Virus record (IMG/VR): IMGVR_UViG_2667527789_000013
Span: 1-31,026 of that record
DNA from: a virus
Lineage: Duplodnaviria > Heunggongvirae > Uroviricota > Caudoviricetes
DNA length: 31,026 nucleotides
Strand: one strand, 5' to 3'
Shown here piece by piece: positions 517 to 28,536 of the stretch. The notes below the pieces were generated by a model, which was not told the origin of the DNA, did no database searches, and worked only from the letters and a program-made list of their open reading frames with translations. The position numbers were made by a program, and so were the translations under genes. The first letter of the stretch is position 1. Each line of letters starts with the position of its first letter.

Positions 517-531
517 TAATCAGGAGGAGTC

Positions 532-1071: not shown

Positions 1072-1110
1072 TCGATGTTAGTAACTTCAAGCCTATGATT
1101 CTTGAAGATA

Positions 1111-5259: not shown

Positions 5260-5362
5260 GTTAAATCTCCAGATAGTCGCAGCACCTGTTGCGCCGCATA
5301 TCTGGTTATAGTATTACCATAAAAACCATATATGAATAAAAATAATATAAAAACAAAAATCT

Positions 5363-5379
5363 ATTACCTTTTGGGTAAT
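5363..5379. promoter_or_regulatory. Operator-like palindrome ATTACC-TTTTG-GGTAAT (site A)
   Basis: Perfect 6-bp inverted half-sites separated by 5 nt; one of six similar intergenic sites; in the divergent region between tailspike and the 5455 gene. Confidence 0.4.
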
Positions 5380-5415
5380 TTTAAAAACCTAGTAGATAGA
5401 AAAAACATAATTTGT

Positions 5416-5435
5416 TACTGTATAAATACACAGCT
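5416..5435 (+). promoter_or_regulatory. LexA (SOS) box candidate overlapping a -10-like element
   Basis: TACTGTATAAATACACAGCT fits CTGT-N8-ACAG (consensus TACTGTATATATATACAGTA); contains TATAAA; 20 nt upstream of ATG 5455 and its GGAGAAG SD. Confidence 0.5.
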
Positions 5436-5454
5436 ATCACATGGAGAAGATAAG

Positions 5455-5712
5455 ATGCAGCAGTATCACTATCCACTGAAAGACGGATTTACGGAAAGAA
5501 TTCATACTCCGGAAGGCGTCAGATCACTGGTGGAGGGATCGCACCTGATGGCATTACTCCGGGAGCTTGATAAAGATGGTTTTAATGTCGATGGCCCACT
5601 TGCCGAACTGACTGCACTGATTAACTACGTCACCAGCTCACAGATGTCTATGCAGGATCTGCAAACACATCTCGACTATTGTACCGAACAATTACGAAAA
5701 CAAACTACATAA
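5455..5712 (+). CDS. Small protein homologous to the C-terminal domain of the Bro-N antirepressor-like protein at 6860..7570 (putative SOS-inducible antirepressor-type factor)
   Basis: 85 aa from ATG 5455 (track ORF 5332..5712 extends upstream through the AT-rich promoter region); by-eye alignment to the last ~80 aa of 6860..7570 shares PLK, G, IH.P.GV, S.LM.LL, DG, AELT, QTH, Y (roughly one third identical). Confidence 0.55.
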   Translation: MQQYHYPLKDGFTERIHTPEGVRSLVEGSHLMALLRELDKDGFNVDGPLAELTALINYVTSSQMSMQDLQTHLDYCTEQLRKQTT

Positions 5713-5734
5713 AGAAAAGGCCGCAAGAGCGGCC
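5705..5734. terminator. Bidirectional rho-independent terminator between convergent genes
   Basis: Stem GGCCGC / GCGGCC with AAGA loop (5719-5734); T-run on the minus strand side (TTTTCTTT) and weaker T-rich tract on the plus side; overlaps stop of the minus-strand gene. Confidence 0.5.
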
Positions 5735-6462
5735 TATCGTTTCGCTTTGTGATCGTCCCAGCACGTTTTGCACCATGCCATTAAACCATCCGCATTTTGA
5801 TTATTAGGATAAAAGCTGGTTCGTTTTCTGCGGACATTACAAATTGGGCACCACTTCATATGACGTGTATTCTTTGGGCCATCAAGACACCTTGCACACC
5901 ACTTAGTCAATCCATCTGGATTTTTTGACGATTTCCGGAATTTTTCATATGGAAGGTTTATTCTGCATCGCAAACACTGCTTGCGGCCACTTGAAACTCT
6001 GTTAGCTGATTCTTCTTTTGACGGCGATACAGAAGGTATTCTTGCTGGCTCTGATACTGCCTGAGGTGCTTTTTTAGGTGACTGAGACGATATGTCATCA
6101 CCAGGAAATCTTCCATGATATGCCGGACGTGTTGACACTCCAGGTGGAAGCTCTGCTGCAAATGGCTTTGGCTGAATCAGTTGCCTCTCTTTTGCTAACT
6201 CCTGCTGTTTATAATATGTCTGGATTACCGCACTATCATAAGCAGGAGGTACGGAAATATTAGGCGCATTACCTCCCGTTTTTTGAAACTGAGTAGAGGT
6301 GTGTTCTATCACCTGTGTACGATTAATCGTTATCTCCCCATCTTCGGTCTTTATCGTTTTGTTATGATTAACGACCGTACGATCAGAGATCTTAGTCTTG
6401 TTCTGGTGAAGGACATAAATAATCACCGCAACCACACCAACAACTATCCAGAAAACTTCCAT
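5734..6462 (-). CDS. Membrane-anchored protein with tandem C-terminal zinc-ribbon-like repeats
   Basis: 242 aa; N-terminal TM helix (FWIVVGVVAVIIYVL) then KTK; long Pro/Ser/Gln-rich linker; two repeats of C-x2-C-x(20-25)-DGL-x2-WC-x2-C (CLRC...WCARC and CPIC...WCKTC); GAGGA SD upstream of ATG 6462. Confidence 0.6.
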   Translation of the reverse strand: MEVFWIVVGVVAVIIYVLHQNKTKISDRTVVNHNKTIKTEDGEITINRTQVIEHTSTQFQKTGGNAPNISVPPAYDSAVIQTYYKQQELAKERQLIQPKPFAAELPPGVSTRPAYHGRFPGDDISSQSPKKAPQAVSEPARIPSVSPSKEESANRVSSGRKQCLRCRINLPYEKFRKSSKNPDGLTKWCARCLDGPKNTRHMKWCPICNVRRKRTSFYPNNQNADGLMAWCKTCWDDHKAKR

Positions 6463-6481
6463 TGCTTTTCCTCACAATAAC

Positions 6482-6498
6482 ATTACCTTAAAGGTAAT
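6482..6498. promoter_or_regulatory. Operator-like palindrome ATTACC-TTAAA-GGTAAT (site B) overlapping putative promoter of the 5734..6462 gene
   Basis: Perfect half-sites; read on the minus strand this gives TTGATC-N16/17-TACCTT, with the -10-like element inside the palindrome, about 20-36 nt upstream of the ATG at 6462. Confidence 0.4.
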
Positions 6499-6574
6499 AT
6501 CTTGCTTTCAGGTGATCAAGCGTTAAACGTAACAAACCAAATGCGGTTGATTTTGATATCTCTCCGCGTTTATC

Positions 6575-6591
6575 ATTACCTTTGCGGTAAA
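6575..6591. promoter_or_regulatory. Operator-like palindrome ATTACC-TTTGC-GGTAAA (site C)
   Basis: Same half-site motif with one mismatch in the right half; lies just upstream of the structured RNA element and about 270 nt upstream of the Bro-N gene. Confidence 0.35.
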
Positions 6592-6625
6592 TTTACATCG
6601 CACTCCTCTTGTGCCATAGTAATCG

Positions 6626-6703
6626 GGCACTGGCAAAATCCAGTGCCGGGATTGGCGTCCCGAGTTACTAAGTGGCGCATACCACGCCAGACGTGGTTTT
6701 TTT
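6626..6703 (+). ncRNA. Candidate small structured RNA or transcription attenuator ending in an intrinsic terminator
   Basis: Perfect 8-bp stem GGCACTGG / CCAGTGCC with 6-nt loop (6626-6647), then terminator stem CCACG / CGTGG followed by seven T (6682-6703); no ORF with SD in this stretch; promoter not identified. Confidence 0.3.
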
Positions 6704-6859
6704 ATGCGTTAAGCACAGCTATATCCGAATTATGGTGGGCTGGGCAGGGGTCCGAAAGGACGCCGGTACCACTTAGGCCGGTACGCCAACCTTGTCCAGT
6801 TCACCACCAGTAATTGGCGTTGCGGTGGTGATTAAAATCACTAAGTGGAGATAACCACC

Positions 6860-7570
6860 ATGGCTAATGCTCAAACTGCCATCTTCAAATTTGAATCTGT
6901 TAACCCTATCCGTTCCATCATTATCGATGGCCAACCATGGTTTGTAGCCCAAGACGTTTGTAGTGCGCTGCGTATCCAAAACGTCACCCAATCACTTGAA
7001 AAACTGGATGATGATGAAAGGTCTATGTTCAACATAGGGCATGAACATCGTGCAATTTTTGACAGCCGAGTAAAAGAGATCAACATCATCTCCGAGTCAG
7101 GCCTCTACACACTGATCCTCCGCTGCCGCGACGCAGTGACACCAGGCACTATACCCTACCGCTTTCGTAAATGGGTTACAGGTGAGGTTCTTCCTCAGAT
7201 CCGCCGCACAGGAAGTTACATTAAAAACTCGCTCCCGCAGAAAGAACGCATAAAGATGGTTGCCGACCAGGTAGCCAACGCCACGGCGTCAGCAGTAATG
7301 CAGGCGATGAAGATAGAGAACAAAACCTACAGTGCCCCACTGAAGCCCGGCTACCGCAGCCTGATTCACTCGCCGTCTGGTGTTCTCGGCCTGACGGAAA
7401 ACTCACTGCTGATGAATCTGCTTAACCAGTTGCAGGACGACGGGCACGACGTATCGGGCGCGGCGGCGGAGCTGACCACCATGTTCTGCTACATCGTCGG
7501 TGTGAGCAAGTGCCTGCGTGATATCCAGACGCACGCGGAGTACATCAACGACAAGGCAGGGTTCTTCTGA
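6860..7570 (+). CDS. Bro-N domain antirepressor-like protein (Ant/KilA-type)
   Basis: ATG 6860 with GGAG SD 9 nt upstream (track ORF starts at GTG 6845); N-terminus ...FESVNPIRSIIIDGQPWFVAQDVCSALRIQNV...LDDDE matches the Bro-N motif; C-terminal ~80 aa paralogous to the 5455..5712 product. Confidence 0.7.
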   Translation: MANAQTAIFKFESVNPIRSIIIDGQPWFVAQDVCSALRIQNVTQSLEKLDDDERSMFNIGHEHRAIFDSRVKEINIISESGLYTLILRCRDAVTPGTIPYRFRKWVTGEVLPQIRRTGSYIKNSLPQKERIKMVADQVANATASAVMQAMKIENKTYSAPLKPGYRSLIHSPSGVLGLTENSLLMNLLNQLQDDGHDVSGAAAELTTMFCYIVGVSKCLRDIQTHAEYINDKAGFF

Positions 7571-7613
7571 CGGCGGCGGCACAGGGATGTGCCTTTAAAT
7601 AATTCTGTACAGA

Positions 7614-7642
7614 TTGCAGACTGTGGGTGAATAGCGTACTAT
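7614..7642 (+). promoter_or_regulatory. Sigma70-like promoter TTGCAG-N17-TACTAT for the two-gene cassette
   Basis: -35 TTGCAG (7614-7619), 17-nt spacer, -10 TACTAT (7637-7642); about 75 nt upstream of the small ORF SD. Confidence 0.4.
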
Positions 7643-7657
7643 TACCTCAAGGGTAAA
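7641..7657. promoter_or_regulatory. Operator-like palindrome ATTACC-TCAAG-GGTAAA (site F) abutting the -10 element
   Basis: Half-site motif begins within the last 2 nt of TACTAT; followed by a second inverted repeat ACGGATT ... AATCCGT (7657-7685) in the leader. Confidence 0.4.
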
Positions 7658-7716
7658 CGGATTGGTTTCATTTTTATTAATCCGTGTAATGAACTTATGA
7701 GATATGAGGTAATGTC

Positions 7717-7896
7717 ATGCGAAACGAAAAATTGCAGATGCGTAGAGCGCAAGCTGCCGCAAGACGTTCTTTCAATGGAAGCGTAGAGTACGTAAAAGTT
7801 ACTATGACAAAAGATCACGCAAGTCGCGTATCCCGCGCTTTCTTTGATTCTCGTAACAATAAGGAAAATTATGAGTTCGTCTGCGTCGCAGAATGA
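7717..7896 (+). CDS. Small basic ORF (59 aa), candidate antitoxin/regulator of the downstream gene
   Basis: ATG 7717 with GAGG SD 7 nt upstream; product MRNEKLQMRRAQAAARRSFNGSVEYVKVTMTKDHASRVSRAFFDSRNNKENYEFVCVAE; its 3' end overlaps the downstream ATG by 26 nt; below the size cut-off of the supplied ORF track. Confidence 0.35.
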   Translation: MRNEKLQMRRAQAAARRSFNGSVEYVKVTMTKDHASRVSRAFFDSRNNKENYEFVCVAE

Positions 7897-8416
7897 TAAA
7901 AATCAAATTATCAGATATAAGGGTCGAGTGTTGCATACGCAAAATTTCTCGGCCCTTTGTGCATCTGATCTTGAGCTGAAGAAAGTATCTGATGCCTTTG
8001 CCCAGTATTGGAAAACGGGATACCATCCATCTCTTGGTAAAGATGCTGCATTTGCTCGTCCGACAGAAATGCTTAAACTAAATGTCAGGCATACTCATGT
8101 CGATAACCAAGACTATATTCCAGAAGATAGTGATAAAAAACACACTGGTAAAAAATCATCTTGGGATGCATGGAAAAATATAGCGTCTGTACAAGTAAAA
8201 TGCATACCAACAAGTGATTGCTTTTTAGTTTATTCGGTAAATCACAATCGTGATGCGCTGGTTATGTTTTTTGTTGACGCAGATGCTCACAACATAACTG
8301 AGCAAGAAGAGTTTAAAGAGGCAGCAATCACAATCAGTTATCAATTCTTTGAGAAAACAAAAACAGAACCAATGCCTTTAGAAGAAGATCTTTTTTCTGA
8401 TAAATGGAAGGAATAG
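7871..8416 (+). CDS. Hypothetical 181-aa protein, possible YafO-like toxin
   Basis: ATG 7871 with AAGGA SD (track start 7844 is TTG); soluble; segments YWKTGYHPSLGKDAAFARP...LKLNVRHTHV and CFLVYSVNHNRDALVMFFV resemble, as I recall them, the conserved pattern of YafO-family ribosome-dependent mRNA interferases; visibly AT-rich coding sequence. Confidence 0.6.
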   Translation: MSSSASQNDKNQIIRYKGRVLHTQNFSALCASDLELKKVSDAFAQYWKTGYHPSLGKDAAFARPTEMLKLNVRHTHVDNQDYIPEDSDKKHTGKKSSWDAWKNIASVQVKCIPTSDCFLVYSVNHNRDALVMFFVDADAHNITEQEEFKEAAITISYQFFEKTKTEPMPLEEDLFSDKWKE

Positions 8417-8438
8417 CCCGCAGCGCGGGCTTTTTTGT
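8416..8438 (+). terminator. Rho-independent terminator after the two-gene cassette
   Basis: Stem GCCCGC / GCGGGC followed by TTTTTT, immediately after stop codon 8414-8416. Confidence 0.6.
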
Positions 8439-8470
8439 GTCTGCGGATTCCCGCCCAGGTGGCGGTGGCA

Positions 8471-8500
8471 TTCGTTAAAAACAAGGCCGCGAAAGCGGCC
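8471..8500 (-). terminator. Rho-independent terminator ending the ejection-protein operon (after the secreted-protein gene)
   Basis: Stem GGCCGC / GCGGCC with GAAA loop; on the minus strand followed by TTGTTTTTAA; 8 nt downstream of the minus-strand stop at 8508. Confidence 0.5.
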
Positions 8501-8507
8501 TGTTTGA

Positions 8508-9359: not shown

Positions 9360-9360
9360 C

Positions 9361-15497: not shown

Positions 15498-16075
15498 CAG
15501 TAACCTCCTATTTTGAATCGGGAGTCAGAATTCATAAAACCTGAGTTAGATAACATTGGCGTCCCACCACTAGATGTACTTCCTTTAGAGAACGGACTCC
15601 ACGTCCCACCAAACATCTGGTATGCACCGTACGCTTTTAGTGGTGCCGTTAACAAAGTGCTGGTCATCGATGATTTAGCAGCCGACTGAGCAGCAGCCCT
15701 CTGTGCCTGAGCATTCATTCCCTGAACCTGATATCCATATGCCTCACGCTGAGCATTATTCACTGTCGTTAACGCATCAAGAGTGCCGAACTGAGCATTA
15801 TCCGCAAAAACGTCAAGAGCTGTTCCGCTACTTAATTCCGCACCGGTAGCCCCCATAGTAGCCGCCGCAGTGCCTGAGCGTTGACGCATTTCACGACGAC
15901 GCTGATCTGCTTCAATATTCCCACGATTGATTGAATCCTGTGCCTGAGCTTCAGCAATTTCAGCATTCCGATCAGCTATGGCTGACTGGTATTTTGCCTG
16001 CTTGCTCTGGCTGTACATTGACGCGGCTGTGGATGCCACTGTGACGGCAACCAAAGCGATGGCTGGGTTACACAT
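15497..16075 (-). CDS. Internal virion protein (T7 gp14-like position), 192 aa
   Basis: Ala/Gln-rich with hydrophobic N-terminus; size and position between gp13-like and gp15-like; stop-start overlaps on both sides. Confidence 0.5.
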   Translation of the reverse strand: MCNPAIALVAVTVASTAASMYSQSKQAKYQSAIADRNAEIAEAQAQDSINRGNIEADQRRREMRQRSGTAAATMGATGAELSSGTALDVFADNAQFGTLDALTTVNNAQREAYGYQVQGMNAQAQRAAAQSAAKSSMTSTLLTAPLKAYGAYQMFGGTWSPFSKGSTSSGGTPMLSNSGFMNSDSRFKIGGY

Positions 16076-16539
16076 TATTTTCTCTCCATGTGAAATCTGT
16101 GGAAATTAATACCAAGAGCACCATAAGGCGCGGCTTCTTCAAGCCTGAATCCAAGCCAGTGCAGCCATGCTTTGGCAACATGGTTTCGCTCGTCGACGTA
16201 GTTTTCCAGGCGCGGATAAACTGCCAGCATCTGCTGCAATACAGGGCGGCAGTGGCGCAGAAATGTCTTCTGATATTTTTCAATACGGCTGGTTCCGACC
16301 AGCCAGGGTGTACCATTGCCACCGATCATTGACGCCGGAGATACACCAAACATGGTTACCAGTTCTCCGTTCGCAAATCCTGACCAGGCCATAGTCGCAG
16401 TACGCAGACCAACACGCAGCGCATCTTCGGTAGTCATCAGTGATACCGCATACAGTTCGTCAATATCAGCCTGACGAACATCCGGCAAAATCATCTGAAG
16501 ATGCTCTTCGGTAGCGGGAATAATTTGAACATCGATCAT
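16075..16539 (-). CDS. Virion-associated protein (T7 gp13-like position), 154 aa
   Basis: Position immediately after the large tail-tube gene and size comparable to gp13; no recognisable catalytic motif. Confidence 0.45.
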   Translation of the reverse strand: MIDVQIIPATEEHLQMILPDVRQADIDELYAVSLMTTEDALRVGLRTATMAWSGFANGELVTMFGVSPASMIGGNGTPWLVGTSRIEKYQKTFLRHCRPVLQQMLAVYPRLENYVDERNHVAKAWLHWLGFRLEEAAPYGALGINFHRFHMERK

Positions 16540-19010: not shown

Positions 19011-19618
19011 CAGGACAACCTCGCAATGGTAAACTCGTCAACCGGAGGCTGTGGTTCCTGTGATTCATTCTGGCTATGCGAGCCAGCACTAATAATCACG
19101 CGATTGTACATATTGAGGGCAAACGTACCGAGGTCTGCATTCCCAGTCAGCGCCATGTTAATAGCTGCCGCAAGACGCCAGGCCAACGCCTCCATAAAAA
19201 TGGCATCAAACATGTTCACATCTGAAACGCGAGAGACATACTTGAGCCATGCCTGCGGCTGGTCTGTGTAGATCAACTTTCCTGTTCCGTTGGTGTCTGC
19301 ACCAACTTCGTACTGAACGCGCATTGCTGCTGTTGGATTGCGTACACCAGGAAGCATAATTTCAGTAATGCGTAGACAATCGGACGGGTACTGGTACGCA
19401 TATTCCCAGTCAGGCGGTGGATTGCTCGTATCTGCAAGCGCCACGCGTTTGGTAGCAAAGTTCCAGTCAAAATCAGAAAGCACAGCATCACGGCAGGCCT
19501 CAAAATGCAGCGAACACTCCCCCGCTTCCTTGCTGGCTTCCGTCAGGCTGTTAATGCTGCGGCTGTTGCCAATATTGGACAGCGCACGATTACAGATCTC
19601 TACTACAGAGGCCATCAC
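19010..19618 (-). CDS. Tail tubular protein A / adaptor (T7 gp11-like), 202 aa
   Basis: Size (T7 gp11 about 196 aa) and position directly upstream of the gp12-like gene; stop-start overlap. Confidence 0.55.
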   Translation of the reverse strand: MMASVVEICNRALSNIGNSRSINSLTEASKEAGECSLHFEACRDAVLSDFDWNFATKRVALADTSNPPPDWEYAYQYPSDCLRITEIMLPGVRNPTAAMRVQYEVGADTNGTGKLIYTDQPQAWLKYVSRVSDVNMFDAIFMEALAWRLAAAINMALTGNADLGTFALNMYNRVIISAGSHSQNESQEPQPPVDEFTIARLS

Positions 19619-19938
19619 TCCCCCCCGTTACCGTAGATGGTTTCAGCTGCTGATTTTTCTACATCACCGGAAACAGGAGCGATTGCCATATCAGTGATCT
19701 GCAGATCAGCGCTGCGATTAACACCATCGTCAGTTTCTCTGGCAGACAGGCCTCGAATAACAGCCTTTGCAGTTATCATCACTTCTGTTCCGACGCCCTG
19801 AGGTTGCGCCTTCAGCTTATTCAATATGTCGTTATTCAGCGTGATGCACAGCCCCCACGGGTATTCATCGCGAGTTCTGGTTTCTCCGCTCTCATCCTGG
19901 TAGCTGTCAGTGCCGGTTTTGAGGTTTACGAGTTCCAT
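19615..19938 (-). CDS. Hypothetical virion/assembly protein (107 aa)
   Basis: ATG 19938 (MELVNLK...) with GGAG SD (track start 19944 is GTG); first gene after the terminator that follows the capsid cluster. Confidence 0.45.
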   Translation of the reverse strand: MELVNLKTGTDSYQDESGETRTRDEYPWGLCITLNNDILNKLKAQPQGVGTEVMITAKAVIRGLSARETDDGVNRSADLQITDMAIAPVSGDVEKSAAETIYGNGGE

Positions 19939-19950
19939 ATACACTCCTGC

Positions 19951-19970
19951 AATAAAGGGGCCGAAGCCCC
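19951..19970 (-). terminator. Strong rho-independent terminator/attenuator after the capsid gene cluster
   Basis: On the minus strand: GGGGC-UUCG-GCCCC (GC stem with UUCG tetraloop) followed by TTTATT; downstream genes are still needed, so read-through is expected. Confidence 0.55.
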
Positions 19971-19988
19971 TTGTCTGATCCGCGAGGC

Positions 19989-20333
19989 TTACACGCCCAG
20001 TTCTTTACGCTTATCTGCGATCTTCTCGCGGAGCGTTTCGGCTTTGGCGTTATGGTGTGGCTTCTCGTTAAAGAGCAATTCGTACTCTTCACGGAGCTTA
20101 TCCAGTTCACCATCATCTGACACATCGTTGATGATTTTGGTGCTGGTTGCTGCCATTGACACCTTTCCTGCAACTTTTGCTTTTGCCTGTCTGGCTGCAT
20201 CGTTAACAGGTTCCAGTGCGCTACCAGGCTCACCTTCGTATTCGATTTCTGCCCCCTCCGGCCACAGAGTGTTATGGATATGAGAGAGGCGCAGAACGCG
20301 GTATCTTGGTTTCTCACCTGACATCGATATCAC
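19989..20333 (-). CDS. Hypothetical head-associated protein (114 aa)
   Basis: Compact ORF in the capsid cluster; charged, helical C-terminus; function unknown. Confidence 0.45.
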   Translation of the reverse strand: MISMSGEKPRYRVLRLSHIHNTLWPEGAEIEYEGEPGSALEPVNDAARQAKAKVAGKVSMAATSTKIINDVSDDGELDKLREEYELLFNEKPHHNAKAETLREKIADKRKELGV

Positions 20334-20334
20334 C

Positions 20335-20772
20335 TTAACCAGTTACTTTTGAGCGGATCGGATACGGCGTATTGGCATCAACATCAAGACTGATACCCGC
20401 AGTGAATTCGCCAGCCGTTAGTGGGCCAGTTGCGACGGAATAGTTAACACGCAGATATCGCTGAACACCGGCAGGCACCTTTGCAGAAACAACTCGTTTA
20501 CCTGCTGTCAGGGCGGTCTTTGCCAGTGCGCCACTATCATAAATAGTGGTCCATGAGCTGTTATTCTCACTCGTCTGCAACTGGATGTTTACAGTTGCAT
20601 CACCGCTTGCCGCGGCGGCTGTGTTAACCAGCGCCCAAAACTCAAGCGGGTAACCCACGCCGATATCACGACGTTTTCCGTCAATTGGACCGAGATCGAT
20701 TACGTCAGTAGAAGCCGCGGTATTCGTAACCGCCTGAGCTTCGGAGAACATCAACAGTTTGTCGGTGATCAT
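20335..20772 (-). CDS. Putative capsid decoration/cement protein (145 aa)
   Basis: Immediately downstream of the major capsid gene; beta-rich Thr/Ala/Val composition; position typical of decoration proteins. Confidence 0.45.
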   Translation of the reverse strand: MITDKLLMFSEAQAVTNTAASTDVIDLGPIDGKRRDIGVGYPLEFWALVNTAAAASGDATVNIQLQTSENNSSWTTIYDSGALAKTALTAGKRVVSAKVPAGVQRYLRVNYSVATGPLTAGEFTAGISLDVDANTPYPIRSKVTG

Positions 20773-20823
20773 CTTCTTTCTCCATTAGTGGGTCTGTTAC
20801 GACCCACAGGTTAATAACAGGCG

Positions 20824-21816
20824 TTACACCACGCGGGCTTCTGTTTCCAGAAGCGCATCAGTTTCACGGATTGGTACACCACGGAATGAAGTCCACCACT
20901 CGCCTTCTGTCTCTTTTACGCTGATCGCCAGAGATGTTTTCTCCAGAGATTGCAGATCGAGAGCCTGACCTACAGTGCGGTTCATATAGAACACCGGGCG
21001 CCCAATGCCACGGTTTGGAATGCGATGTAGTGCTTTAACCATCAACTTCGCAATATTTGCGGCAGAGGAAGGTTCTGAAAGATTGCTGACATCAATGTTC
21101 GCAACGCGAACAACATAACGCCAGTCACGCAGAGTAAGTCCATTGTCCCATTTGTAATGAGTACGGTAGCCTTCGTACTTGCCGCCACTAGCATCTTCCA
21201 GTGTCACCTGGCCTTTATCTTCCATCTGGATGCCAGCCTTCTGCCCTTTCGGGAAGATGCCATGCACAGTGTTTTCCCCCCACACTATTAACCAGATTGA
21301 GGTGTTGTCTGTACCCGTGCCACCAGCATCAATAATGTTCTGAGCATTACCCGCAGACAGACTGGAATAGCGGGAAGACAGCCCCATAAACTGCTGAGGG
21401 TTAACGCTGGAATCACCGTAAAACAGCGTCTGCGCCATCGCCTGATTCATCGCTTCAATAAATGCTCGGTCTTCAGACAGGCGGAATTCAGCGGTATTAC
21501 CGTTCAGATCAGCCAGTGACTTATCGACTTCAGCATAGGTTTCCAGCATGCCAACGGTATCGGTGATCTGCACAGTGGTTGATTTGCTCGGTTGTACGCC
21601 ATAGTTCAGCAAACGCCAGGTAGCTGAAGGTAAACCAGAACGAATGGTGGTTCGATGTCCGGTAGGAAGGTTCCCTTCGACAAAAGGCATATCCTGAAGG
21701 ATCGGGTTAGTTTGACCGAGAAGCTCGATAATCTTATCGACTTTCCCGTTTGGATCGACGCGCTTACCCCAGTCAGCCAGCGTTAGCGCAGTTAAGCCTT
21801 TAACAGCCATTGTCAT
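20824..21816 (-). CDS. Major capsid protein
   Basis: 330 aa, follows the scaffold gene; size and composition consistent with an HK97-fold coat protein of podoviruses. Confidence 0.75.
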   Translation of the reverse strand: MTMAVKGLTALTLADWGKRVDPNGKVDKIIELLGQTNPILQDMPFVEGNLPTGHRTTIRSGLPSATWRLLNYGVQPSKSTTVQITDTVGMLETYAEVDKSLADLNGNTAEFRLSEDRAFIEAMNQAMAQTLFYGDSSVNPQQFMGLSSRYSSLSAGNAQNIIDAGGTGTDNTSIWLIVWGENTVHGIFPKGQKAGIQMEDKGQVTLEDASGGKYEGYRTHYKWDNGLTLRDWRYVVRVANIDVSNLSEPSSAANIAKLMVKALHRIPNRGIGRPVFYMNRTVGQALDLQSLEKTSLAISVKETEGEWWTSFRGVPIRETDALLETEARVV

Positions 21817-21824
21817 TTCCTCTC

Positions 21825-22520
21825 TTATTTGCCATAGAGCACTTCGGCCGCACTACGCTGGCCTTCATTACCACCGGTGACCATGCCATCTTCAGACATC
21901 GCCTTTCCGATTTTCACGAACGTTTTGACCAGATCAGGGTGATTACCCAGCCCGGTGGTGTTCAGATATTCTTTGAGTTCAGGTGTCCCGAACTGGTCAA
22001 GCGCACGCTGTGCGGCGCTAAGGTTAGAAATCAACTTGTCGCCACCGATTTCTTTGTCAGCTTTTACATCCGCAGCCCACTGCTCGGTTGTTTTCTGCCA
22101 GGCTTCTGCCTGGCGCTGCTGAACACCTGCCAGAATCTTCGGATAAGCATCAACCAGCTTTTGCGCTTGCTCGTTGGTCAGGTTAAGTTCTCGCGCCACC
22201 GGCTCGAATTCCTTCAACGCTTCTGTATCCAGCTCTACGCCTTCGGCAGCCTGAAACTCGTACTTCTCCGGCGCACCCTCTGGTTTATCGCCGTCCTTTT
22301 TTTCATCCTGCTTATCGTTTTCAGGCTTTTTGTCATCAGCAGGTTTATCGCCATCAGCAACAGGTTGTGGCTTATCACCTTCCTGTTGTGATGGATCACC
22401 AACTGGAGCAGGGTTATCACCTGCAGGCGCTGACGGTTCTGACGCAGCCGGAGCTGCTCCACCATCGACTGGCTGCTCATTGCAAAGACGGTAGTTAATT
22501 AAAGAATCAAATAAACTCAC
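21825..22520 (-). CDS. Scaffolding protein
   Basis: 231 aa, highly acidic, Pro/Asp/Lys-rich N-terminal low-complexity region and helical C-terminus; between portal and capsid as in T7 gene 9. Confidence 0.6.
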   Translation of the reverse strand: MSLFDSLINYRLCNEQPVDGGAAPAASEPSAPAGDNPAPVGDPSQQEGDKPQPVADGDKPADDKKPENDKQDEKKDGDKPEGAPEKYEFQAAEGVELDTEALKEFEPVARELNLTNEQAQKLVDAYPKILAGVQQRQAEAWQKTTEQWAADVKADKEIGGDKLISNLSAAQRALDQFGTPELKEYLNTTGLGNHPDLVKTFVKIGKAMSEDGMVTGGNEGQRSAAEVLYGK

Positions 22521-22531
22521 GATCTTTCCCC

Positions 22532-22801
22532 TTAAGCCATAATCCCGGCTGCCTTTAACTTGGCCAGCAGAGAATTAAAATCAGCGACGACTCCACTAAC
22601 ATCACTCGCGACAGAATTAGCTTGTGTTGCAGCTTTCTTGACGCCACCTATAACTGATTCAGTTGCCGCAGGCGGCGTAAATGTTTCAGGCTTTTCCTGA
22701 ATATCACTCCAGGAAACAGGAGCATCATCACCAATGACATTTACTTCAGCGATGGTGCTGTCTCCATCAAGCCTGATCGGTCTAATTTTATTTAAAGACA
22801 T
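22532..22801 (-). CDS. Hypothetical small protein (89 aa)
   Basis: ATG 22801 (MSLNKIRP...) preceded by AGAGG SD; track ORF 22532..22819 begins at a GTG further upstream. Confidence 0.45.
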   Translation of the reverse strand: MSLNKIRPIRLDGDSTIAEVNVIGDDAPVSWSDIQEKPETFTPPAATESVIGGVKKAATQANSVASDVSGVVADFNSLLAKLKAAGIMA

Positions 22802-22805
22802 TTGC

Positions 22806-23102
22806 CTACCTCTGTTCACTGGCCTCTTTGGCCATCTTCAAATACTGTTCAGGGCAATGCGCCATAACGCGCTGAAACAGTTCCAGCGCCAGATTGCGTT
22901 GCCCCTCATTAAATGCCATTGCCATAGCGTCCATCGGTGAGATAGCGGAAAACACCCGGCCTTTCTCCAGCACCGACCAGACAACGCGACGCCCCTGTTC
23001 ACTGCTCATGACAAAGCGAATGTCATCAATTTCACGCTGTGCCATGTCACGTTGCTTACGGGCGTTTTCTTCTTTCAGTTGATCGTCTTCGTAATCTGTC
23101 AT
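22806..23102 (-). CDS. Hypothetical small protein (98 aa) downstream of portal
   Basis: ATGA-type overlap with the portal stop; charged helical protein of unknown function. Confidence 0.5.
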   Translation of the reverse strand: MTDYEDDQLKEENARKQRDMAQREIDDIRFVMSSEQGRRVVWSVLEKGRVFSAISPMDAMAMAFNEGQRNLALELFQRVMAHCPEQYLKMAKEASEQR

Positions 23103-24778
23103 TGTGATTTCCCACCCTGACCACTAACTGCATTCGCCATAGCTGACAAAACACTCGGATCCGAAGTTTTAGCTTCGCTTAGCGTCTTGGCACCCTGTGC
23201 CGCCGCCATCCCCATCGCCATCATTTGTTGCTGCTGTTGTTGCTGTGCCCGTTGCTGGCGAGCCTGCTCAACCTGTTCCTGCGGAACAATGACGGTTGGA
23301 GACACTCCGGACATATCAGCGAATGCATCGATCGCCTGATCAACGTTGAGTTTGTCGAGAGCTTCTGGTTTCGCTTGTGCAAGTTGACCAATGAAGTTGA
23401 CCGTGGATGCCAGACTGGACAGGCCGATAGACTTCTGCGCCTGAGCCATGACGGAAATGTATTCGACCTTCAGGGGCATACCTTCCATCGCGTCAGGCGG
23501 TGGCGGCAGCATGTTTTTACGCACCATCATCGAGAAAGCGCGGTCAATGAGAGGATTAAGACATTCGTCGTTCAGACGCTCAAGTACCGGCCCCAACATC
23601 AGAAGTTTTTCTTCTTTCATTTCGATCACCGCTTCAACAGGCATCGAGCGGGTATTGATGTTCTGCAACATCATGAACAGATCGACAAAGTAGGCGCTGT
23701 TAATGATTTGACGAGTGTCCTGAATGTCTGCCACCAAATCTGCTGTACTGGGGTTAACCAGATAAGCAGGCCTGAAGCCATCCTGACCAGTAATCTGATC
23801 GATATACGTGATGTCGCCAGGAAGAAGGGAGGCGCGCTGATTCTTGAGGGAAGTCGGAGCAACCATCGGCGGATTGGTGGCTTTATCAATCAACTGCGAC
23901 TTGCGCTTCTGGAGAAGCTGCAATGCCTTAACAGGTCCAAGCGCCAGCATACCCGGGCATGATGATCCATAAACATCTTCGCCGTTAACTTCCCAGCGCG
24001 GAGCCATAATTGGAAACTCATCAAATCCGGACTCACGCAACAACTTGTCGTTATCGCCACCAACCTCGTAATAAACCGATTTGAATGGCTTGTTCTTGCT
24101 ATCCAGCTTCGATGTATCGCGGTCAATGTTCGGGTAAACCGAATGCATCACTTCAATCCACTTCTCGTAGGTGCCGCTTTCCCACATGCTTTTTACGGAT
24201 TCGCTGACGTTATTTAGCCCGAACTCCTGAACAAGCTGACGAACAGTCATAGAGAACTTGCGAAAACAGGTGTCCACACTGCCACGAGGTGAGTTAGCCA
24301 GGTAGTAACTGCCTATCGGGAATGGCATTGTGCGAATGATGTCCTCGTCATCCTCCAGTACTGCCATTGCACCAGTGCTGTATGTGCCGAGGCTTCCGTA
24401 TAACTGCGGCAGCGACTGATAGAGATTCGACTTATTGAACATATCGTTCATGCGGTTCTGCACCGCCTCAAGCCACAACTTAACAGGACCATAATCCATC
24501 ATTTCAGGATCAGGCGTAGCCAGGCGAAACCACGGACGCGCGGGGCTTGTGATGCCAGACATCATGCCGCTGGCGAGAGTGCGCGCCGCCATAGTCCCGG
24601 TCGAATCAATAATGCGTGTATTGCGTCGATCGTTACTGTTGACCTCAGAAGTAAGAAAGCGGGAACCACGCGGGTTGATGTAATCACTCAACTCGCGCCA
24701 GTGCGGCTCGAACGACTGACGCTCGCTTTCAAGTTGTGCGAACTGTTTGTTCAATCGCTCTTTAGTTGTTTCCGCCAT
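23099..24778 (-). CDS. Portal (head-to-tail connector) protein
   Basis: 559 aa; position after terminase, size and Gln/Ala-rich C-terminal tail (QARQQRAQQQQQQQMMAMGMAAAQG) typical of T7-type portal proteins; GGAG SD. Confidence 0.75.
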   Translation of the reverse strand: MAETTKERLNKQFAQLESERQSFEPHWRELSDYINPRGSRFLTSEVNSNDRRNTRIIDSTGTMAARTLASGMMSGITSPARPWFRLATPDPEMMDYGPVKLWLEAVQNRMNDMFNKSNLYQSLPQLYGSLGTYSTGAMAVLEDDEDIIRTMPFPIGSYYLANSPRGSVDTCFRKFSMTVRQLVQEFGLNNVSESVKSMWESGTYEKWIEVMHSVYPNIDRDTSKLDSKNKPFKSVYYEVGGDNDKLLRESGFDEFPIMAPRWEVNGEDVYGSSCPGMLALGPVKALQLLQKRKSQLIDKATNPPMVAPTSLKNQRASLLPGDITYIDQITGQDGFRPAYLVNPSTADLVADIQDTRQIINSAYFVDLFMMLQNINTRSMPVEAVIEMKEEKLLMLGPVLERLNDECLNPLIDRAFSMMVRKNMLPPPPDAMEGMPLKVEYISVMAQAQKSIGLSSLASTVNFIGQLAQAKPEALDKLNVDQAIDAFADMSGVSPTVIVPQEQVEQARQQRAQQQQQQQMMAMGMAAAQGAKTLSEAKTSDPSVLSAMANAVSGQGGKSQ

Positions 24779-24792
24779 TTCAATGACTCCGG

Positions 24793-24999
24793 TTACTGAC
24801 CAAGCAGCGTTTTACCGCTGGTATTAGCGGTTGATGTGTCGCCCTGAGAACCGGTAAGCAGCGTAGAACTACGACCAGCAGCAGCGCGACGGCGACGTGT
24901 TTCTTCGTCGCGGGCATCAACAACGGCAGCATCCTGCTCCTGTGGTGCTGCCTGAACTTCTGGTGTTGCAGGCACTGATGGTGAGCTACCCATGCACAT
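24793..24999 (-). CDS. Small ORF (68 aa) immediately upstream of portal, uncertain
   Basis: ATG 24999 preceded by CGGAGTCATTGA, the same 12-nt translation-initiation context that precedes the portal ATG; low-complexity Ala/Arg/Thr-rich product. Confidence 0.3.
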   Translation of the reverse strand: MCMGSSPSVPATPEVQAAPQEQDAAVVDARDEETRRRRAAAGRSSTLLTGSQGDTSTANTSGKTLLGQ

Positions 25000-25067
25000 A
25001 TCAATGACTCCGTACGCAATTAAATTATTACCAATTTAACCACATATGATTTATTTATCGTAGATAG

Positions 25068-25096
25068 TTGACATTTAACGCACGAATTATTACCTT
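25068..25096 (+). promoter_or_regulatory. Sigma70-like promoter TTGACA-N17-TACCTT for the plus-strand tRNA/Gp49-like unit
   Basis: Perfect -35 TTGACA (25068-25073), 17-nt spacer, weak -10 TACCTT (25091-25096) lying inside operator site D. Confidence 0.35.
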
Positions 25097-25105
25097 TTAG
25101 GTAAG
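25089..25105. promoter_or_regulatory. Operator-like palindrome ATTACC-TTTTA-GGTAAG (site D)
   Basis: Same half-site motif as sites A-C, E, F; overlaps the -10-like element of the putative promoter. Confidence 0.4.
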
Positions 25106-25426
25106 CAAATGGTTCATTCCAGTTATTAACCTGACTGGCTTGTCGTTAAATTGAACAGGTGGAGTGAGCTTTTATTTTGAGCAGTACGGCGTATGGCACA
25201 TGCGCCGATAGCGGTCTGGATACGTTTAAGGGGCACCCTCCCTTGCTCGGGCAAACGAACCAGGTAGCCGGAATGTGCAAGTCGAGCGGTTTTATTCCGC
25301 GCACGGGGATTCACCATCCCGGCGATTCGGTGTGACGCCTCGGAAGAGACGAGGGTACAACGATGAGAGCATTTATGGAGCCGCGACAAAGTGTGGCGCC
25401 TTAACAGGCTAAGTGCTCTCAGCGTT

Positions 25427-25503
25427 GTGGCATTAGCTCAGCTGGACAGAGCAACCGCCTTCTAAGCGGTTGGTCGCAGGTTCGAATCCTGCATGCCACG
25501 CCA
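25427..25503 (+). tRNA. tRNA-Arg (anticodon TCT; reads AGA)
   Basis: 77 nt cloverleaf by hand: acceptor GTGGCAT/ATGCCAC, D-arm GCTC-AGCTGGACA-GAGC, anticodon stem ACCGC/GCGGT with loop CTTCTAA, variable TGGTC, T-arm GCAGG-TTCGAAT-CCTGC, discriminator G, encoded CCA. Differs from E. coli argU as I recall it in the acceptor and anticodon stems. Confidence 0.85.
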
Positions 25504-25546
25504 GAATCACGCCTAAGAACCGTGATGCCAGAAGTTCCAGTGGCTT

Positions 25547-25589
25547 GGCGGTGATGGTTTCCCTTGAAGGACTATCACCGCCCTTTTTA
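25547..25589 (+). terminator. Hairpin plus T-run downstream of the tRNA
   Basis: Stem GGCGGTGAT / ATCACCGCC (9 bp, 18-nt loop) followed by CTTTTTA. Confidence 0.4.
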
Positions 25590-25666
25590 CAGCAGGACGC
25601 CATTGCGATGACTTCATGCTGTAAACCCGTACAGCCACGGAAGGCATAACTCATTGCTTCCAGTTC

Positions 25667-25690
25667 GCCCGGTTCGCCGGGCATTTTTTT
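25667..25690 (+). terminator. Intrinsic terminator/attenuator immediately upstream of the Gp49-like SD
   Basis: Stem GCCCGG / CCGGGC with TTCG loop followed by seven T; the T-run ends 1 nt before the AAGGTGA SD of the ATG at 25702. Confidence 0.45.
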
Positions 25691-25701
25691 AAGGTGAGAT
25701 T

Positions 25702-26073
25702 ATGAACGACCAGCAAATCGAAAAAGAAATCGTTGAGAAAGGCAAAACGGCACCGCGCGTTACGCCAGACCATATCGAAGGCATTATTGCTCAGGAGGCA
25801 TATTTCACAGCAGAAGATGGTGCCTTTGGCAAAGCCATAAAAGCGAAACATACTGGCGGAGAGGTAAACTACCAGCCGCACGAATCACTTTCTCTGCTGA
25901 CGTTCTGCGTCCTGGTGCTGCGCAACGGCTTCACCGTCACCGGAGAGAGCGCCTGTGCAAGCCCGGAAAACTTTGATGCAGAAATTGGTCGGAAGATTGC
26001 CCGGCAGAATGCTGTAAACAAAATCTGGATGCTCGAAGGTTACTTGCTGAAGCAGAAGCTAAGCGAGCAATAA
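25702..26073 (+). CDS. Gp49-like phage protein (N4 gp49 / Sf6 gp66 family), cargo gene
   Basis: 123 aa; motifs TAPRVT, NGFTVTGESACASPENFDAEIGRKIARQNAVNKIWMLEGYLL match my recollection of this widespread prophage family; plus strand, opposite to the structural operon. Confidence 0.55.
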   Translation: MNDQQIEKEIVEKGKTAPRVTPDHIEGIIAQEAYFTAEDGAFGKAIKAKHTGGEVNYQPHESLSLLTFCVLVLRNGFTVTGESACASPENFDAEIGRKIARQNAVNKIWMLEGYLLKQKLSEQ

Positions 26074-26093
26074 CACCGTGACATGTCACAAAC

Positions 26094-26120
26094 AGCCAGC
26101 CGATGAGCTGGCTTTGTTTT
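26094..26120 (+). terminator. Rho-independent terminator after the Gp49-like gene
   Basis: Stem AGCCAGC / GCTGGCT with 6-nt loop followed by TTTGTTTT. Confidence 0.55.
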
Positions 26121-26163
26121 ATCCTCATCAGAGGATATCAACGACATTATCCCCACCAGCGGA

Positions 26164-27639
26164 TTAAGCATACGGGTCATAATCTGTGATGGCCTTGCCT
26201 TGCTGGTTCTGCTGCCCAGGAATTCGCAGACGCTTCGACACAGGGAACGCAAACGTCAGCAGTAGCGCATCGCCTTTACCCGGCGAACGCCCAAGACGCT
26301 CTTTGATATCTTCCTTCGGTTCGATAACGATTTTACCGTCCACACGAACTTTGTACTCTGCCGCCGACAGGTCGTCTGCTGTTTCCTGGTCATCCAGTAT
26401 GCCGCCCAGCCTCAGCCATGTCTTGCATGAATTGAACATCTCCCCACGCTTGTTGAGCATCTGCGGGTCAGTAGACGCGCCACCGAACGGAACAAGTTGC
26501 CATGTACGACCCCATCCGTCACCGATTGACTTCAGACCGGTTCCGTAACCGAAGTCGATGAACACCGCGTCAGCCTGGTACTGGTCTTCAAAGTCAGCGA
26601 TACGCTTCGCCATAATCAGATCGTCTGTGGTCTTGTTACCAGTCCATAGCACCTTACTGTGCAGCCCCTGCCGCAGGTATATCACCGCGTCATCAACGCC
26701 TGAGTATGCCGGGTCAACGCCGATTATCACCGGAGCATGTGCAACCTGCGCAGCGGTTACCACCCGTTTCATTGCCTCATCAGTAAGACCGGTAGGGATA
26801 AACTGCAATTCAGATGCATCAGGGAATATGCCGCGCACACGGATTTTAACGAAGTCGCTGTCTTCCCCGTAGTCATCAACCCATTTCTGCAACTGCTGTT
26901 TGTTAGTGCCTTCCACCGTCCGGCTGTCAATCTGCGCACACTTCCAGCGGTGTTTGTACTTGCGGAAACATTCACGGAAACGCCCGGTGTTACGCGTCGG
27001 GTTCCCGAACGCCACCCAGATGATTTCGGTGTCTTCGTCCGTCAGCGCACCCTCTGCTACCTCCCACACCAGATCGGCAATGTTCGACGCTTCATCGAAT
27101 ACCACGATGATGCGTTTGCGCTCGTTGTGTAGTCCGGCGAATGCCTCAGTGTTGTGCTCAGACCAGGGGATTGCGTCAGCTCGCCACCGCTTGTCGTGCC
27201 CAGGATCATTGCTGTACATCGCGGTAGCGGTACAGGTAAACCAGTCTTTCGTGATAGCAAGGTTCGACCACTTGATAATTTCCGGCCAGGTCTTCGTTCG
27301 TAGCTGGTTGTCGGTGTTGGCGGTCACCACGACCTTACAATCCTCGCAAGTGGACATGCCCCAGTTGATCAGCATTGAGATGAATGCGGATTTACCAATA
27401 CCGTGACCAGAAGCGCGTGCCAGCATAAGCGGCTGATAGCGCGTCTCTGGATTCTGCAGGTGATCACGTATCTCTCGGAACGCATCAGCCTGCCACTGAC
27501 GTGGACCGGTGGCATGTGCCAGTTCAGTCCCCTCTTCCCCCCACGGGAACGCATAGAGGGCATAACCAAGCGGATCGTGAGTGAACCCTGCAATATCCTC
27601 GATTAACTGCTCTTCAGGAGATAACGCTGTATCTGTCAC
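26164..27639 (-). CDS. Terminase large subunit
   Basis: 491 aa; Walker A-like ASGHGIGKS near the N-terminus, acidic nuclease-type C-terminal half; directly follows the small-subunit gene with ATGA overlap. Confidence 0.8.
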   Translation of the reverse strand: MTDTALSPEEQLIEDIAGFTHDPLGYALYAFPWGEEGTELAHATGPRQWQADAFREIRDHLQNPETRYQPLMLARASGHGIGKSAFISMLINWGMSTCEDCKVVVTANTDNQLRTKTWPEIIKWSNLAITKDWFTCTATAMYSNDPGHDKRWRADAIPWSEHNTEAFAGLHNERKRIIVVFDEASNIADLVWEVAEGALTDEDTEIIWVAFGNPTRNTGRFRECFRKYKHRWKCAQIDSRTVEGTNKQQLQKWVDDYGEDSDFVKIRVRGIFPDASELQFIPTGLTDEAMKRVVTAAQVAHAPVIIGVDPAYSGVDDAVIYLRQGLHSKVLWTGNKTTDDLIMAKRIADFEDQYQADAVFIDFGYGTGLKSIGDGWGRTWQLVPFGGASTDPQMLNKRGEMFNSCKTWLRLGGILDDQETADDLSAAEYKVRVDGKIVIEPKEDIKERLGRSPGKGDALLLTFAFPVSKRLRIPGQQNQQGKAITDYDPYA

Positions 27640-28232
27640 TGATTACCATCCTGACGTTCTTTGAGTCGCTTCCTGGCTGCTGCTATGCGATCAGCAATTG
27701 TCACATTCACATTAACATCCAGATGTTCTTTGAACGCGTTGACATCAACATGCTTACCAATCAGCTCAAGGTTCTTCACCTTGTCAGGCCATTTAATTTT
27801 TTTGAGGATTGTCTCTATCGAATCCTCGTTCATGTTCATGATGGTCGATGACAGATCAAAGCCACTAAGCGTAGTGCGCCAGATTTTCGGCCACTCACGG
27901 ATTGGTTTAAGGCTCCCATCGTCGTTGAGGATGTCGATCACGTCCATCTGATCGATCTCCACCAGGCGCATGAGAACGTAATCAACACTGACGCGCATTC
28001 GTTTGTTGCGCTCCTCCATCAACTCGGCAATCCGTTTTTGAATACGTTCATCGCGCATCATTACACTGGCTTTAACTGCCGCTGTATTTGGGGAGAATCC
28101 TGCGTTAATCGCTGCCTGAGTCTGGTTTTCAGGCGTTTGGATGTATGACTGGCAATAAGCCTCCTGCATTGCTGTTAGTGGCTTAAATTGCGTTGATTTG
28201 CGTTTATAGGTTTTAGGTTCAGCAGGCATCAT
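27636..28232 (-). CDS. Terminase small subunit
   Basis: About 198 aa from ATG 28232 (MMPAEPKTYKRK...) with GGTGG SD; track ORF 27636..28310 starts at TTG and runs through an upstream terminator hairpin; basic N-terminal region and position upstream of TerL. Confidence 0.55.
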   Translation of the reverse strand: MMPAEPKTYKRKSTQFKPLTAMQEAYCQSYIQTPENQTQAAINAGFSPNTAAVKASVMMRDERIQKRIAELMEERNKRMRVSVDYVLMRLVEIDQMDVIDILNDDGSLKPIREWPKIWRTTLSGFDLSSTIMNMNEDSIETILKKIKWPDKVKNLELIGKHVDVNAFKEHLDVNVNVTIADRIAAARKRLKERQDGNQ

Positions 28233-28249
28233 AACCACCGTGGTAATTG

Positions 28250-28265
28250 TTACCGTTTTGGTAAT
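28250..28265. promoter_or_regulatory. Operator-like palindrome (G)TTACC-GTTTT-GGTAAT (site E) with an extra GGTAAT half-site at 28242-28247
   Basis: On the minus strand reads TACTAT-TACC-AAAAC-GGTAAC-A-ATTACC just before the TerS SD; the same TACTATTACC-N5-GGTAA arrangement occurs at site F. Confidence 0.4.
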
Positions 28266-28274
28266 AGTACCATG

Positions 28275-28301
28275 CAAAATAAAGCCGCCATAGTTGGCGG
28301 C
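28275..28301 (-). terminator. Rho-independent terminator upstream of the terminase genes
   Basis: Stem GCCGCC / GGCGGC with 6-nt loop; on the minus strand followed by TTTATTTTG; lies between the 28307 gene stop and the TerS start. Confidence 0.5.
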
Positions 28302-28306
28302 AGTAT

Positions 28307-28519: not shown

Positions 28520-28536
28520 AACACCTTCGTGACATG

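Follow-up and report, generated by a model that had tools for sequence, protein, structure and literature searches.

The described systems closest to the one considered here are those of the phages epsilon15 and SPC32H: the repressor-binding sites of epsilon15 are reportedly connected with Kropinski et al. 2007, and the Rep/Ant lysis-lysogeny switch of SPC32H is said to be the subject of Kim and Ryu 2013 and Kim et al. 2016. In this study, a window of 31,026 nucleotides (the whole stretch of DNA analysed, i.e. positions 1 to 31,026 of the IMG/VR virus record IMGVR_UViG_2667527789_000013) was examined for a 17-bp palindrome, ATTACC-N5-GGTAAT, which recurs between its genes and which an earlier note, made from the sequence alone, had taken for the mark of a regulon governed by one dimeric phage regulator. 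This set of palindromes is already known: its members are the Rep operators of the Uetakeviruses, annotated in epsilon15 and forming part of the SPC32H Rep/Ant switch. No new mechanism is revealed, and only details are new, in that the operators designated B, C and F show accessory modules of the Escherichia coli lineage wired into the Rep regulon.

The GenBank record of epsilon15 (AY150271.2) holds seven features labelled 'protein_bind: repressor, lysogeny', and their extracted sequences are exactly the 17-mer found in the window; sites A, D and E1 of the window are positional orthologues of sites annotated there. The records of phiV10 and TL-2011b are without annotation of the 17-mer sites. 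According to the summary of Kim et al. 2016 given in a 2022 paper, PMC9638917, Rep of SPC32H is a tetramer that binds palindromic DNA sites, with pairs of DNA-binding domains drawn from different dimers, and the Ant tetramer binds two Rep dimers, splitting the Rep tetramer. The simple dimer of the earlier note is therefore not retained, as by the account in PMC9638917 the homologous Rep of SPC32H works as a tetramer with one pair of N-terminal domains per palindrome.

By megablast the window falls in the epsilon15/phiV10 group (genus Uetakevirus), with 96.6% identity to phiV10 in the terminase-portal region and 94% identity to TL-2011b in the accessory region. A prophage of E. coli STEC1585, integrated beside guaA, is 99.8% identical to window positions 15582-29910 over 14.3 kb. 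Judged by these matches, the window is a Uetakevirus (epsilon15/phiV10-like) prophage, with a predicted insertion beside guaA. We consider it very probable that the seven palindromes of the window are the operators of the main repressor of this prophage, Rep (a homologue of epsilon15 gp38 and SPC32H Rep), the gene of which would lie just outside the window.

The palindrome and its predicted repressor

With at most one mismatch, ATTACC-N5-GGTAAT was found at seven places in the window. A pattern search with ATTACCNNNNNGGTAA (at most one mismatch) returned 14 strand-matches against 0.35 expected, a number that none of 100 dinucleotide-preserving shuffles reached; separate dinucleotide shuffles gave an expectation of 0.04 17-mer sites (at most one mismatch) per window, and of 0.0065 when the shuffling was restricted to non-coding DNA. 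The only enriched spacer was N5 (seven sites versus 0-1 for the other spacers of 2-8 nt), which bears out the 6-bp inverted half-sites with a fixed 5-nt spacer reported before. All seven sites lie wholly within the non-coding DNA, which makes up 1,993 bases (6.4%) of the window (P = 4.5e-9 under uniform placement), site E being intergenic only when the start of terS is taken as the ATG at 28229. Chance occurrence was rejected on the basis of the shuffles and of this confinement, and the palindrome is real. The six sites listed earlier, all described as intergenic, were recovered, five of them (A, B, C, D and F) at unchanged coordinates; the sixth, E, exists, but its full 17-mer spans 28249-28265 and is one base longer than noted, and a seventh, unlisted site is located at 28231-28247, 18 bp from E. 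Since none of the seven sites is in coding DNA and the motif is present at the homologous promoters of relatives, the proposal of a regulon withstood both checks.

That the repeats are RNA or DNA hairpins (terminators or processing sites) or targets of a methylase or restriction enzyme has almost no probability. Every site can indeed form a hairpin of 4-10 bp, and the phage family encodes an adenine methylase, but the hairpins are weak (-2.2 to -8.2 kcal/mol), and identity as rho-independent terminators was rejected because the stems are AT-rich and have no T run. The true terminators nearby are GC-rich and are found elsewhere (5718-5735, 6681-6697 and 28284-28301), conservation is limited to the half-sites, with spacer changes that lack compensatory logic, and a methylation or restriction target would not keep to the non-coding fraction of the window.

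The comparison was extended to five complete genomes of phages from four host genera (E. coli, Salmonella, Enterobacter and Klebsiella), namely phiV10, epsilon15, SPC32H, Tyrion and BUCT711. In each of them the 17-mer with at most one mismatch occurs 8-12 times (12 copies in SPC32H) against 0.01-0.06 expected, and always between genes. The palindromes of phiV10 are all intergenic. Two of them, with an 18-bp distance, precede terS, and single ones are found upstream of gp3/p06, of isrK and of int, in the gap that separates small ant from the tail fibre gene, and in the gap between oac and the holin cluster. Of the others, two (62 bp apart) are downstream of the repressor gene, two separate this gene from the divergent cro-like gene, one comes after the cro-like terminator, and two (62 bp apart) are upstream of the DUF1064 gene. 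The five genomes have one and the same layout, in which orthologous positions recur (the terS pair with its 18-bp distance, the site upstream of gp3 and that in the ant/tailspike region), and the window sites at the terS pair, upstream of gp3 and in the ant/tailspike gap occupy these same intergenic positions. The consensus of 56 pooled distinct sites is aTTACC-nnWnn-GGTAAt, in which the five inner bases of each half-site are nearly invariant. In alignments of orthologous regions (sites A and D with phiV10, epsilon15, Tyrion, SPC32H and BUCT711; site E with phiV10, Tyrion and the STEC1585 prophage), the operator is kept while the flank on one side diverges freely.

In the complete relatives, rep is flanked by two or three 17-mers per side (the left and right operators, OL and OR), and another pair precedes the gene that follows the replication genes (a DUF1064 or a RuvC-like resolvase gene, depending on the phage). 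The OL pair, downstream of rep, and this second pair are 62-63 bp apart in five of five genomes, i.e. approximately six helical turns: 31952/32014 and 35069/35131 in phiV10 (L001), 32554/32616 and 35906/35968 in epsilon15 (L003), 34194/34256 and 37264/37326 in L004, 4209/4271 and 7123/7186 in L005, and 33603/33665 and 35971/36033 in L006. This spacing suggests looping or bridging by the Rep tetramer. All complete genomes examined share a conserved variant with two mismatches, ATTACCYTAAAGGTATA, in the attP/int-upstream region (L001 26869, L003 26881, L004 28567, L005 12619 and L006 26959); its place in a prophage would be the int end, which is beyond the window.

The distribution of the sites also bears on the earlier alternative of 'repressor or late activator', of which the first half is supported by the epsilon15 annotation and the flanks of rep and the second is disfavoured. 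In favour of a late-gene activator acting on the terminase and structural promoters, there are sites in front of terS, of the gp3/portal genes and of the tailspike gene, and the genus is not known to have a late activator. This reading nevertheless has very little probability: immunity and early regions account for about half of the sites in the complete genomes (those upstream of int and on the two sides of rep among them), the -10 hexamer, the start and the ribosome-binding site of terS are all covered by the operator sequence there, which is a repressing position, and another conserved box, CATATRTGGTT, is a better candidate for an element specific to late promoters.

No Rep homologue was detected within the window by a homologue search, in line with the earlier statement that the regulator gene is absent from it. 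In the STEC1585 prophage, rep (encoding a 194-aa helix-turn-helix repressor, WP_000836290) is located approximately 4 kb past the point corresponding to the right end of the window. The motif flanks rep in phiV10, in this 99.8%-identical prophage and in 80 IMG/VR loci with an identical Rep, and it is this occurrence around the repressor gene and at dispersed promoters of relatives, together with the repressor binding annotated in epsilon15, that upholds the idea of a single phage regulator. Rep of the STEC1585 prophage matches SPC32H Rep (PDB 5D50/5D4Z) over its full length (E = 4e-42) and contains HTH_3 and YdaS-like helix-turn-helix domains.

Compared with the E. coli allele, Rep of the four host groups shows only 43-44% identity (43% between the allele of the window's relatives and epsilon15 gp38), yet a segment NLVNRW in the N-terminal domain is invariant. 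This segment is taken to be the recognition helix, and its conservation fits an operator that is unchanged across the genus. A heteroimmunity test, in which different palindromes were expected with Rep proteins only about 43% identical, was not usable within the genus because the same motif is found throughout it, which the conserved NLVNRW would account for. The search for diverse Rep relatives gave 80 loci, all with an identical Rep, and a protein word search with the N-terminal domain gave fragments only. A tblastn match in the Pseudomonas siphovirus PseuP_224 served as the outgroup instead. The backbone of this 43-kb phage is lambda-like and includes a Q antiterminator. The product of its cI gene is 39% identical to Rep in the N-terminal domain and different in the C-terminal part, and its genome contains ATTACC-N4-GGTAAT three times (locus L089, positions 10905, 10931 and 11806), all flanking cI, and no sites with other spacers. 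Half-site and DNA-binding domain therefore go together.

These data also speak to the view that the sites are bound mainly by another regulator, the candidates being a small Cro-like protein, encoded divergently to rep, and proteins of the AlpA or PerC family from the early-left operon. In its favour, the OR sites lie between rep and a divergent gene for a 76-aa protein that has no Pfam match, and Cro and CI of lambdoid phages act on common operators. Against it, the sites are ascribed to the repressor in the epsilon15 record, an unrelated Pseudomonas phage has the half-site together with the N-terminal domain of Rep, and the invariant NLVNRW of Rep parallels the invariant operator; moreover, sharing by a Cro-like protein would supplement the Rep model and not displace it. 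We therefore give this view little probability and retain Rep as the main binding protein.

Operators and predicted promoters in the window

The gene map was built from open reading frames (ORFs), Pfam matches and the annotation of close relatives. The late genes are on the minus strand, from terS (27636-28229; Terminase_2) down to 8508, and the tailspike and lysis genes come next at 5259-1277. A sigma-70-like promoter with its -10 hexamer or start beneath the operator was predicted at five of the seven sites. The stock consensus scan reported a promoter at C only; the others come from a relaxed scan and from conservation, and remain predictions.

At the head of the late operon, the predicted terS promoter (extended -10 TGgTACTAT, 28272 to 28264, minus strand) follows immediately after the terminator of the early operon (28301-28284). 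Operator E1 (28249-28265; minus-strand reading ATTACCAAAACGGTAAC, one mismatch) overlaps the last 2 nt of this extended -10 and is the orthologue of epsilon15 12-27, annotated 'repressor'; the promoter-like arrangement on the minus strand is TACTATTACC. Operator E2 (28231-28247; ATAACCACCGTGGTAAT, in minus-strand reading ATTACCACGGTGGTTAT, one mismatch), 18 bp from E1, covers the Shine-Dalgarno-like GGTGG and ends 1-2 nt before the start codon of terS, so that the first gene of the late operon is guarded by both. The stretch from the terminator to the terS ATG does not vary among the aligned relatives from E. coli and Enterobacter, i.e. phiV10, the STEC1585 prophage and Tyrion. A PGAP-style start of terS, the TTG at 28310 (as in L002, 12637-13311), would extend the ORF across the two operators and the rho-independent terminator (28301-28284). 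More likely, terS begins with the ATG at 28229, as in the epsilon15, SPC32H and Tyrion records, and the terS start of pipeline annotations is corrected in this way.

Operator D (25089-25105; ATTACCTTTTAGGTAAG, one mismatch) holds the -10 (TACCTT) of a plus-strand promoter TTGACA-17-TACCTT (25068-25096), the -35 hexamer of which is invariant in six genomes, and it is the orthologue of epsilon15 2931-2947, annotated 'repressor'. The promoter is directed at the tRNA-Arg gene (25427-25503) and a gp49-family gene (25702-26073), i.e. opposite to the late genes. The tRNA-Arg (plus strand; anticodon UCU, reading the rare AGA codon) is located between terL and the portal gene, and a phiV10p04-like ORF that overlaps it on the opposite strand (25433-25684) is probably spurious.

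Three operators are associated with accessory modules. Operator B (6482-6498; ATTACCTTAAAGGTAAT, no mismatches), 19 nt upstream of the ATG of a minus-strand gene (5734-6462), holds the -10 hexamer of a predicted minus-strand promoter TTGATC-17-TACCTT (6519 to 6491). Operator F (7641-7657; ATTACCTCAAGGGTAAA, one mismatch), also carried by TL-2011b, has a two-base overlap with the -10 of TTGCAG-17-TACTAT (7614-7642, plus strand) and precedes a small ORF (7717-7896) and a YafO-like toxin gene (7844-8416). The ORF encodes 59 aa and overlaps the plus-strand gene of the YafO_toxin family (190 aa; Pfam E = 1.2e-5); the two may form a toxin-antitoxin pair and, being placed behind operator F, are probably silent in the lysogen and expressed upon induction.

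Operator C (6575-6591; ATTACCTTTGCGGTAAA, one mismatch) overlaps the -10 of TTGATT-18-TATCAT (6547-6576, plus strand) and directly adjoins a second promoter with an extended -10, TTTACA-17-TGcCATAGT (6592-6620), the predicted start of which is the 5' end, 6627, of an isrK-like Hfq-binding small RNA (6627-6703, plus strand; Rfam, 67 bits). This RNA and a C4-type antisense RNA (6728-6811, plus strand; Rfam, 66 bits) form the leader of a Bro-N antirepressor gene (6845-7570, plus strand). The arrangement and spacing from operator C to isrK are kept in TL-2011b, phiV10 and Tyrion, the operator being centred near -44 of the isrK promoter in the window and at about -41 in phiV10. The isrK-C4-Bro-N ant module as such is also found in phiV10 and Tyrion, and it resembles the immI region of P1 (c4-icd-ant).

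Operator A (5363-5379; ATTACCTTTTGGGTAAT, no mismatches) is located between the divergent tailspike gene (3127-5259, minus strand) and the small antirepressor gene ant (5455-5712, plus strand), and is the orthologue of the epsilon15 site 19895-19911, 'repressor' in that record. It lies between the predicted ant and tailspike promoters, upstream of both predicted starts (by approximately 57 bp for ant and 69 bp for tailspike), and overlaps no predicted core promoter element. The promoter-like -35/-10 arrangements reported earlier for B (minus strand), D, F and E were all confirmed. The earlier claim of control over cargo promoters is corrected for A, D and E: these sites belong to promoters of the phage core, which are kept throughout the genus, and not to cargo.

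Several points weigh against Rep as the regulator of all these promoters. Rep binding in this phage is something we infer, and the presence of rep in this prophage, outside the window, is deduced from relatives. The experimental status of the operator rests on the GenBank annotation and a secondary summary; full-text literature searches for the motif strings and for descriptions of the epsilon15 operators gave no relevant match. Most of the predicted promoters are weak consensus matches, and the exact promoters, like the mode of occlusion at each site, are inferred. Simple occlusion does not explain site A, nor site C with respect to the isrK promoter. Finally, the Cro-like protein encoded beside rep may share the Rep sites.

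Sites C and A are also the ground for a variant of the model, to which we assign a low probability: Rep may act as an activator or architectural protein at operators that are off core promoters, or the immunity specificity of the genus may reside in the pairing of the antirepressor with the Rep C-terminal domain. At site C, the clearest case, the isrK-C4 antisense RNAs of the lysogen could be turned on by Rep, by which the second (Bro-N) antirepressor would be kept untranslated; the lambda CI protein stimulates PRM from a similar position. A comparable action might be exerted at site A, which adjoins a conserved CATATRTGGTT box. As for immunity, neither the operator nor the putative recognition helix varies among phages of four host genera, and specificity may therefore reside in the antirepressor/Rep pairing rather than in the recognition of the operator.

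The CATATRTGGTT box itself is a second conserved element, often followed by N5-GGTAAT and at some places forming a perfect palindrome, AACCATATATGGTT. It is found in the window at 5324-5334 and 25038-25048 (both on the minus strand), in phiV10 (L001) at 3308, 20921 and 24739, and in epsilon15 (L003) at 2988 and 24751. In most genomes examined it accompanies the Rep operators that precede gp3/portal, the tailspike gene and the holin cluster, at a distance of 42-54 bp toward the late genes, and it coincides with the predicted -35/spacer (TTCATA-17-TACTAT for the tailspike gene). The box may mark a class of late promoters or the site of a second regulator. CATATRTGGTT-N5-GGTAAT was also considered as a degenerate Rep site; only its right half matches, and it was therefore treated as a separate element.

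At the left end of the window (1-1276), two plus-strand genes encode a glycine-zipper lipoprotein-like protein and a DUF5384 protein. Neither has matches to phage families, and they are therefore probably host genes; the prophage end (attR) should be in the gap at 1072-1276, adjoining the Rz-like gene.

Antirepressors and the proposed switch

The product of ant (85 aa) is 86% identical to the antirepressor of the SPC32H record, and the gene has the same position, divergent from the tailspike gene. A LexA box, CTGTATAAATACACAG (5418-5433, plus strand), overlaps the predicted ant -10 (TACTGT, 5416-5421) and is conserved in five other members of the genus. A cognate small antirepressor under predicted LexA control, by which a Uetakevirus Rep operator set is recognized, is therefore present in the window, and the position of the box over ant agrees with the reported induction mechanism of SPC32H. 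The Bro-N protein gives this lineage a second antirepressor beside the small LexA-controlled Ant. Another exact match to CTGT-N8-ACAG, CTGTAAACCCGTACAG (25619-25634, plus strand), lies approximately 70 nt upstream of the gp49-family gene; it would be a poor LexA box because its centre is GC-rich.

In the mechanism favoured here, with Rep as the general repressor, a pair of Rep N-terminal helix-turn-helix domains would contact the TTACC/GGTAA half-sites of each operator in the lysogen, the half-sites being 11 bp apart centre to centre, i.e. one helical turn. In the homologue studied, the active form is a tetramer and has two of these pairs; a Rep tetramer could therefore link adjacent operators, for example E1 and E2 (18 bp apart) and perhaps B and C (93 bp apart). 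Where the operator lies over the -10 hexamer or the start, bound Rep would block RNA polymerase; the promoters closed in this way would be the late terS promoter, the promoter directed at tRNA-Arg, those at B and F and, of the two at C, the upstream one, and Rep on E1/E2 would stop initiation of the whole late operon. With operators on so many promoters, one protein could silence early, late and accessory promoters genome-wide. Upon DNA damage, LexA would leave the box over the ant promoter, Ant would be made and would break up the Rep tetramer, and all the promoters would open together.

Such a switch would explain the silence of a common prophage family of E. coli and Salmonella, in which one repressor acts genome-wide, the late terminase promoter included, and is released by one LexA-controlled antirepressor. 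It also offers an annotation rule for the genus, as scanning for aTTACC-nnWnn-GGTAAt should find Rep-controlled promoters. The accessory genes (the YafO-like toxin module, tRNA-Arg and the isrK-C4-antirepressor module) would share this switch and are probably not expressed in the lysogen, which bears on claims about the effects of such cargo on the host.

Comparison with known repressor systems

As in lambda, the half-sites are one helical turn apart, several operators flank the repressor gene, and pairs at a fixed distance suggest cooperativity or looping. In contrast to lambda-type local operators, limited to OL and OR, most Uetakevirus sites are outside the immunity region (six of nine phiV10 sites with at most one mismatch, and seven of seven in the window), whereas PseuP_224 has a local, lambda-like layout with the N4 spacer.

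In mycobacteriophage-type silencing by L5 gp71, stoperators are asymmetric and orientation-dependent, lie within transcribed regions and stop elongation. The likeness is in the many copies of one repressor site across a prophage and the single protein that silences the genome. The window sites are not of this type, as all seven are palindromic and intergenic and five of them overlap predicted core promoter elements.

The C1 operators of P1 are scattered over the genome as well, with Op51 at the immI (c4-icd-ant) operon, and each is an asymmetric 17-mer. Both systems have one repressor, many dispersed promoters and one operator at the promoter of a C4-RNA/antirepressor operon. The P1 operator is asymmetric and its C1 protein unrelated, whereas the window sites are symmetric and would be read by a Cro/C1-type helix-turn-helix domain (HTH_3/YdaS-like in Rep). 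The sites do not belong to the P1 or L5 families because they are palindromic, intergenic and read, as predicted, by such a domain.

The closest likenesses are within the genus. SPC32H has a homologous Rep, an 86%-identical Ant in the same position, a LexA box over the ant promoter and the same operator, and differs in being without the second, Bro-N antirepressor that the E. coli lineage carries behind the isrK and C4 RNAs. With epsilon15 (AY150271.2; gp38) the window shares the identical 17-bp palindrome and its dispersed placement; in epsilon15 the sites are upstream of terS and of gp3, between ant and tailspike, at OL and upstream of the resolvase gene. The window differs in its host, E. 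coli, and in adding operators B and C (with the isrK-C4-Bro-N ant module) and F (with the YafO-like gene), which epsilon15 lacks.

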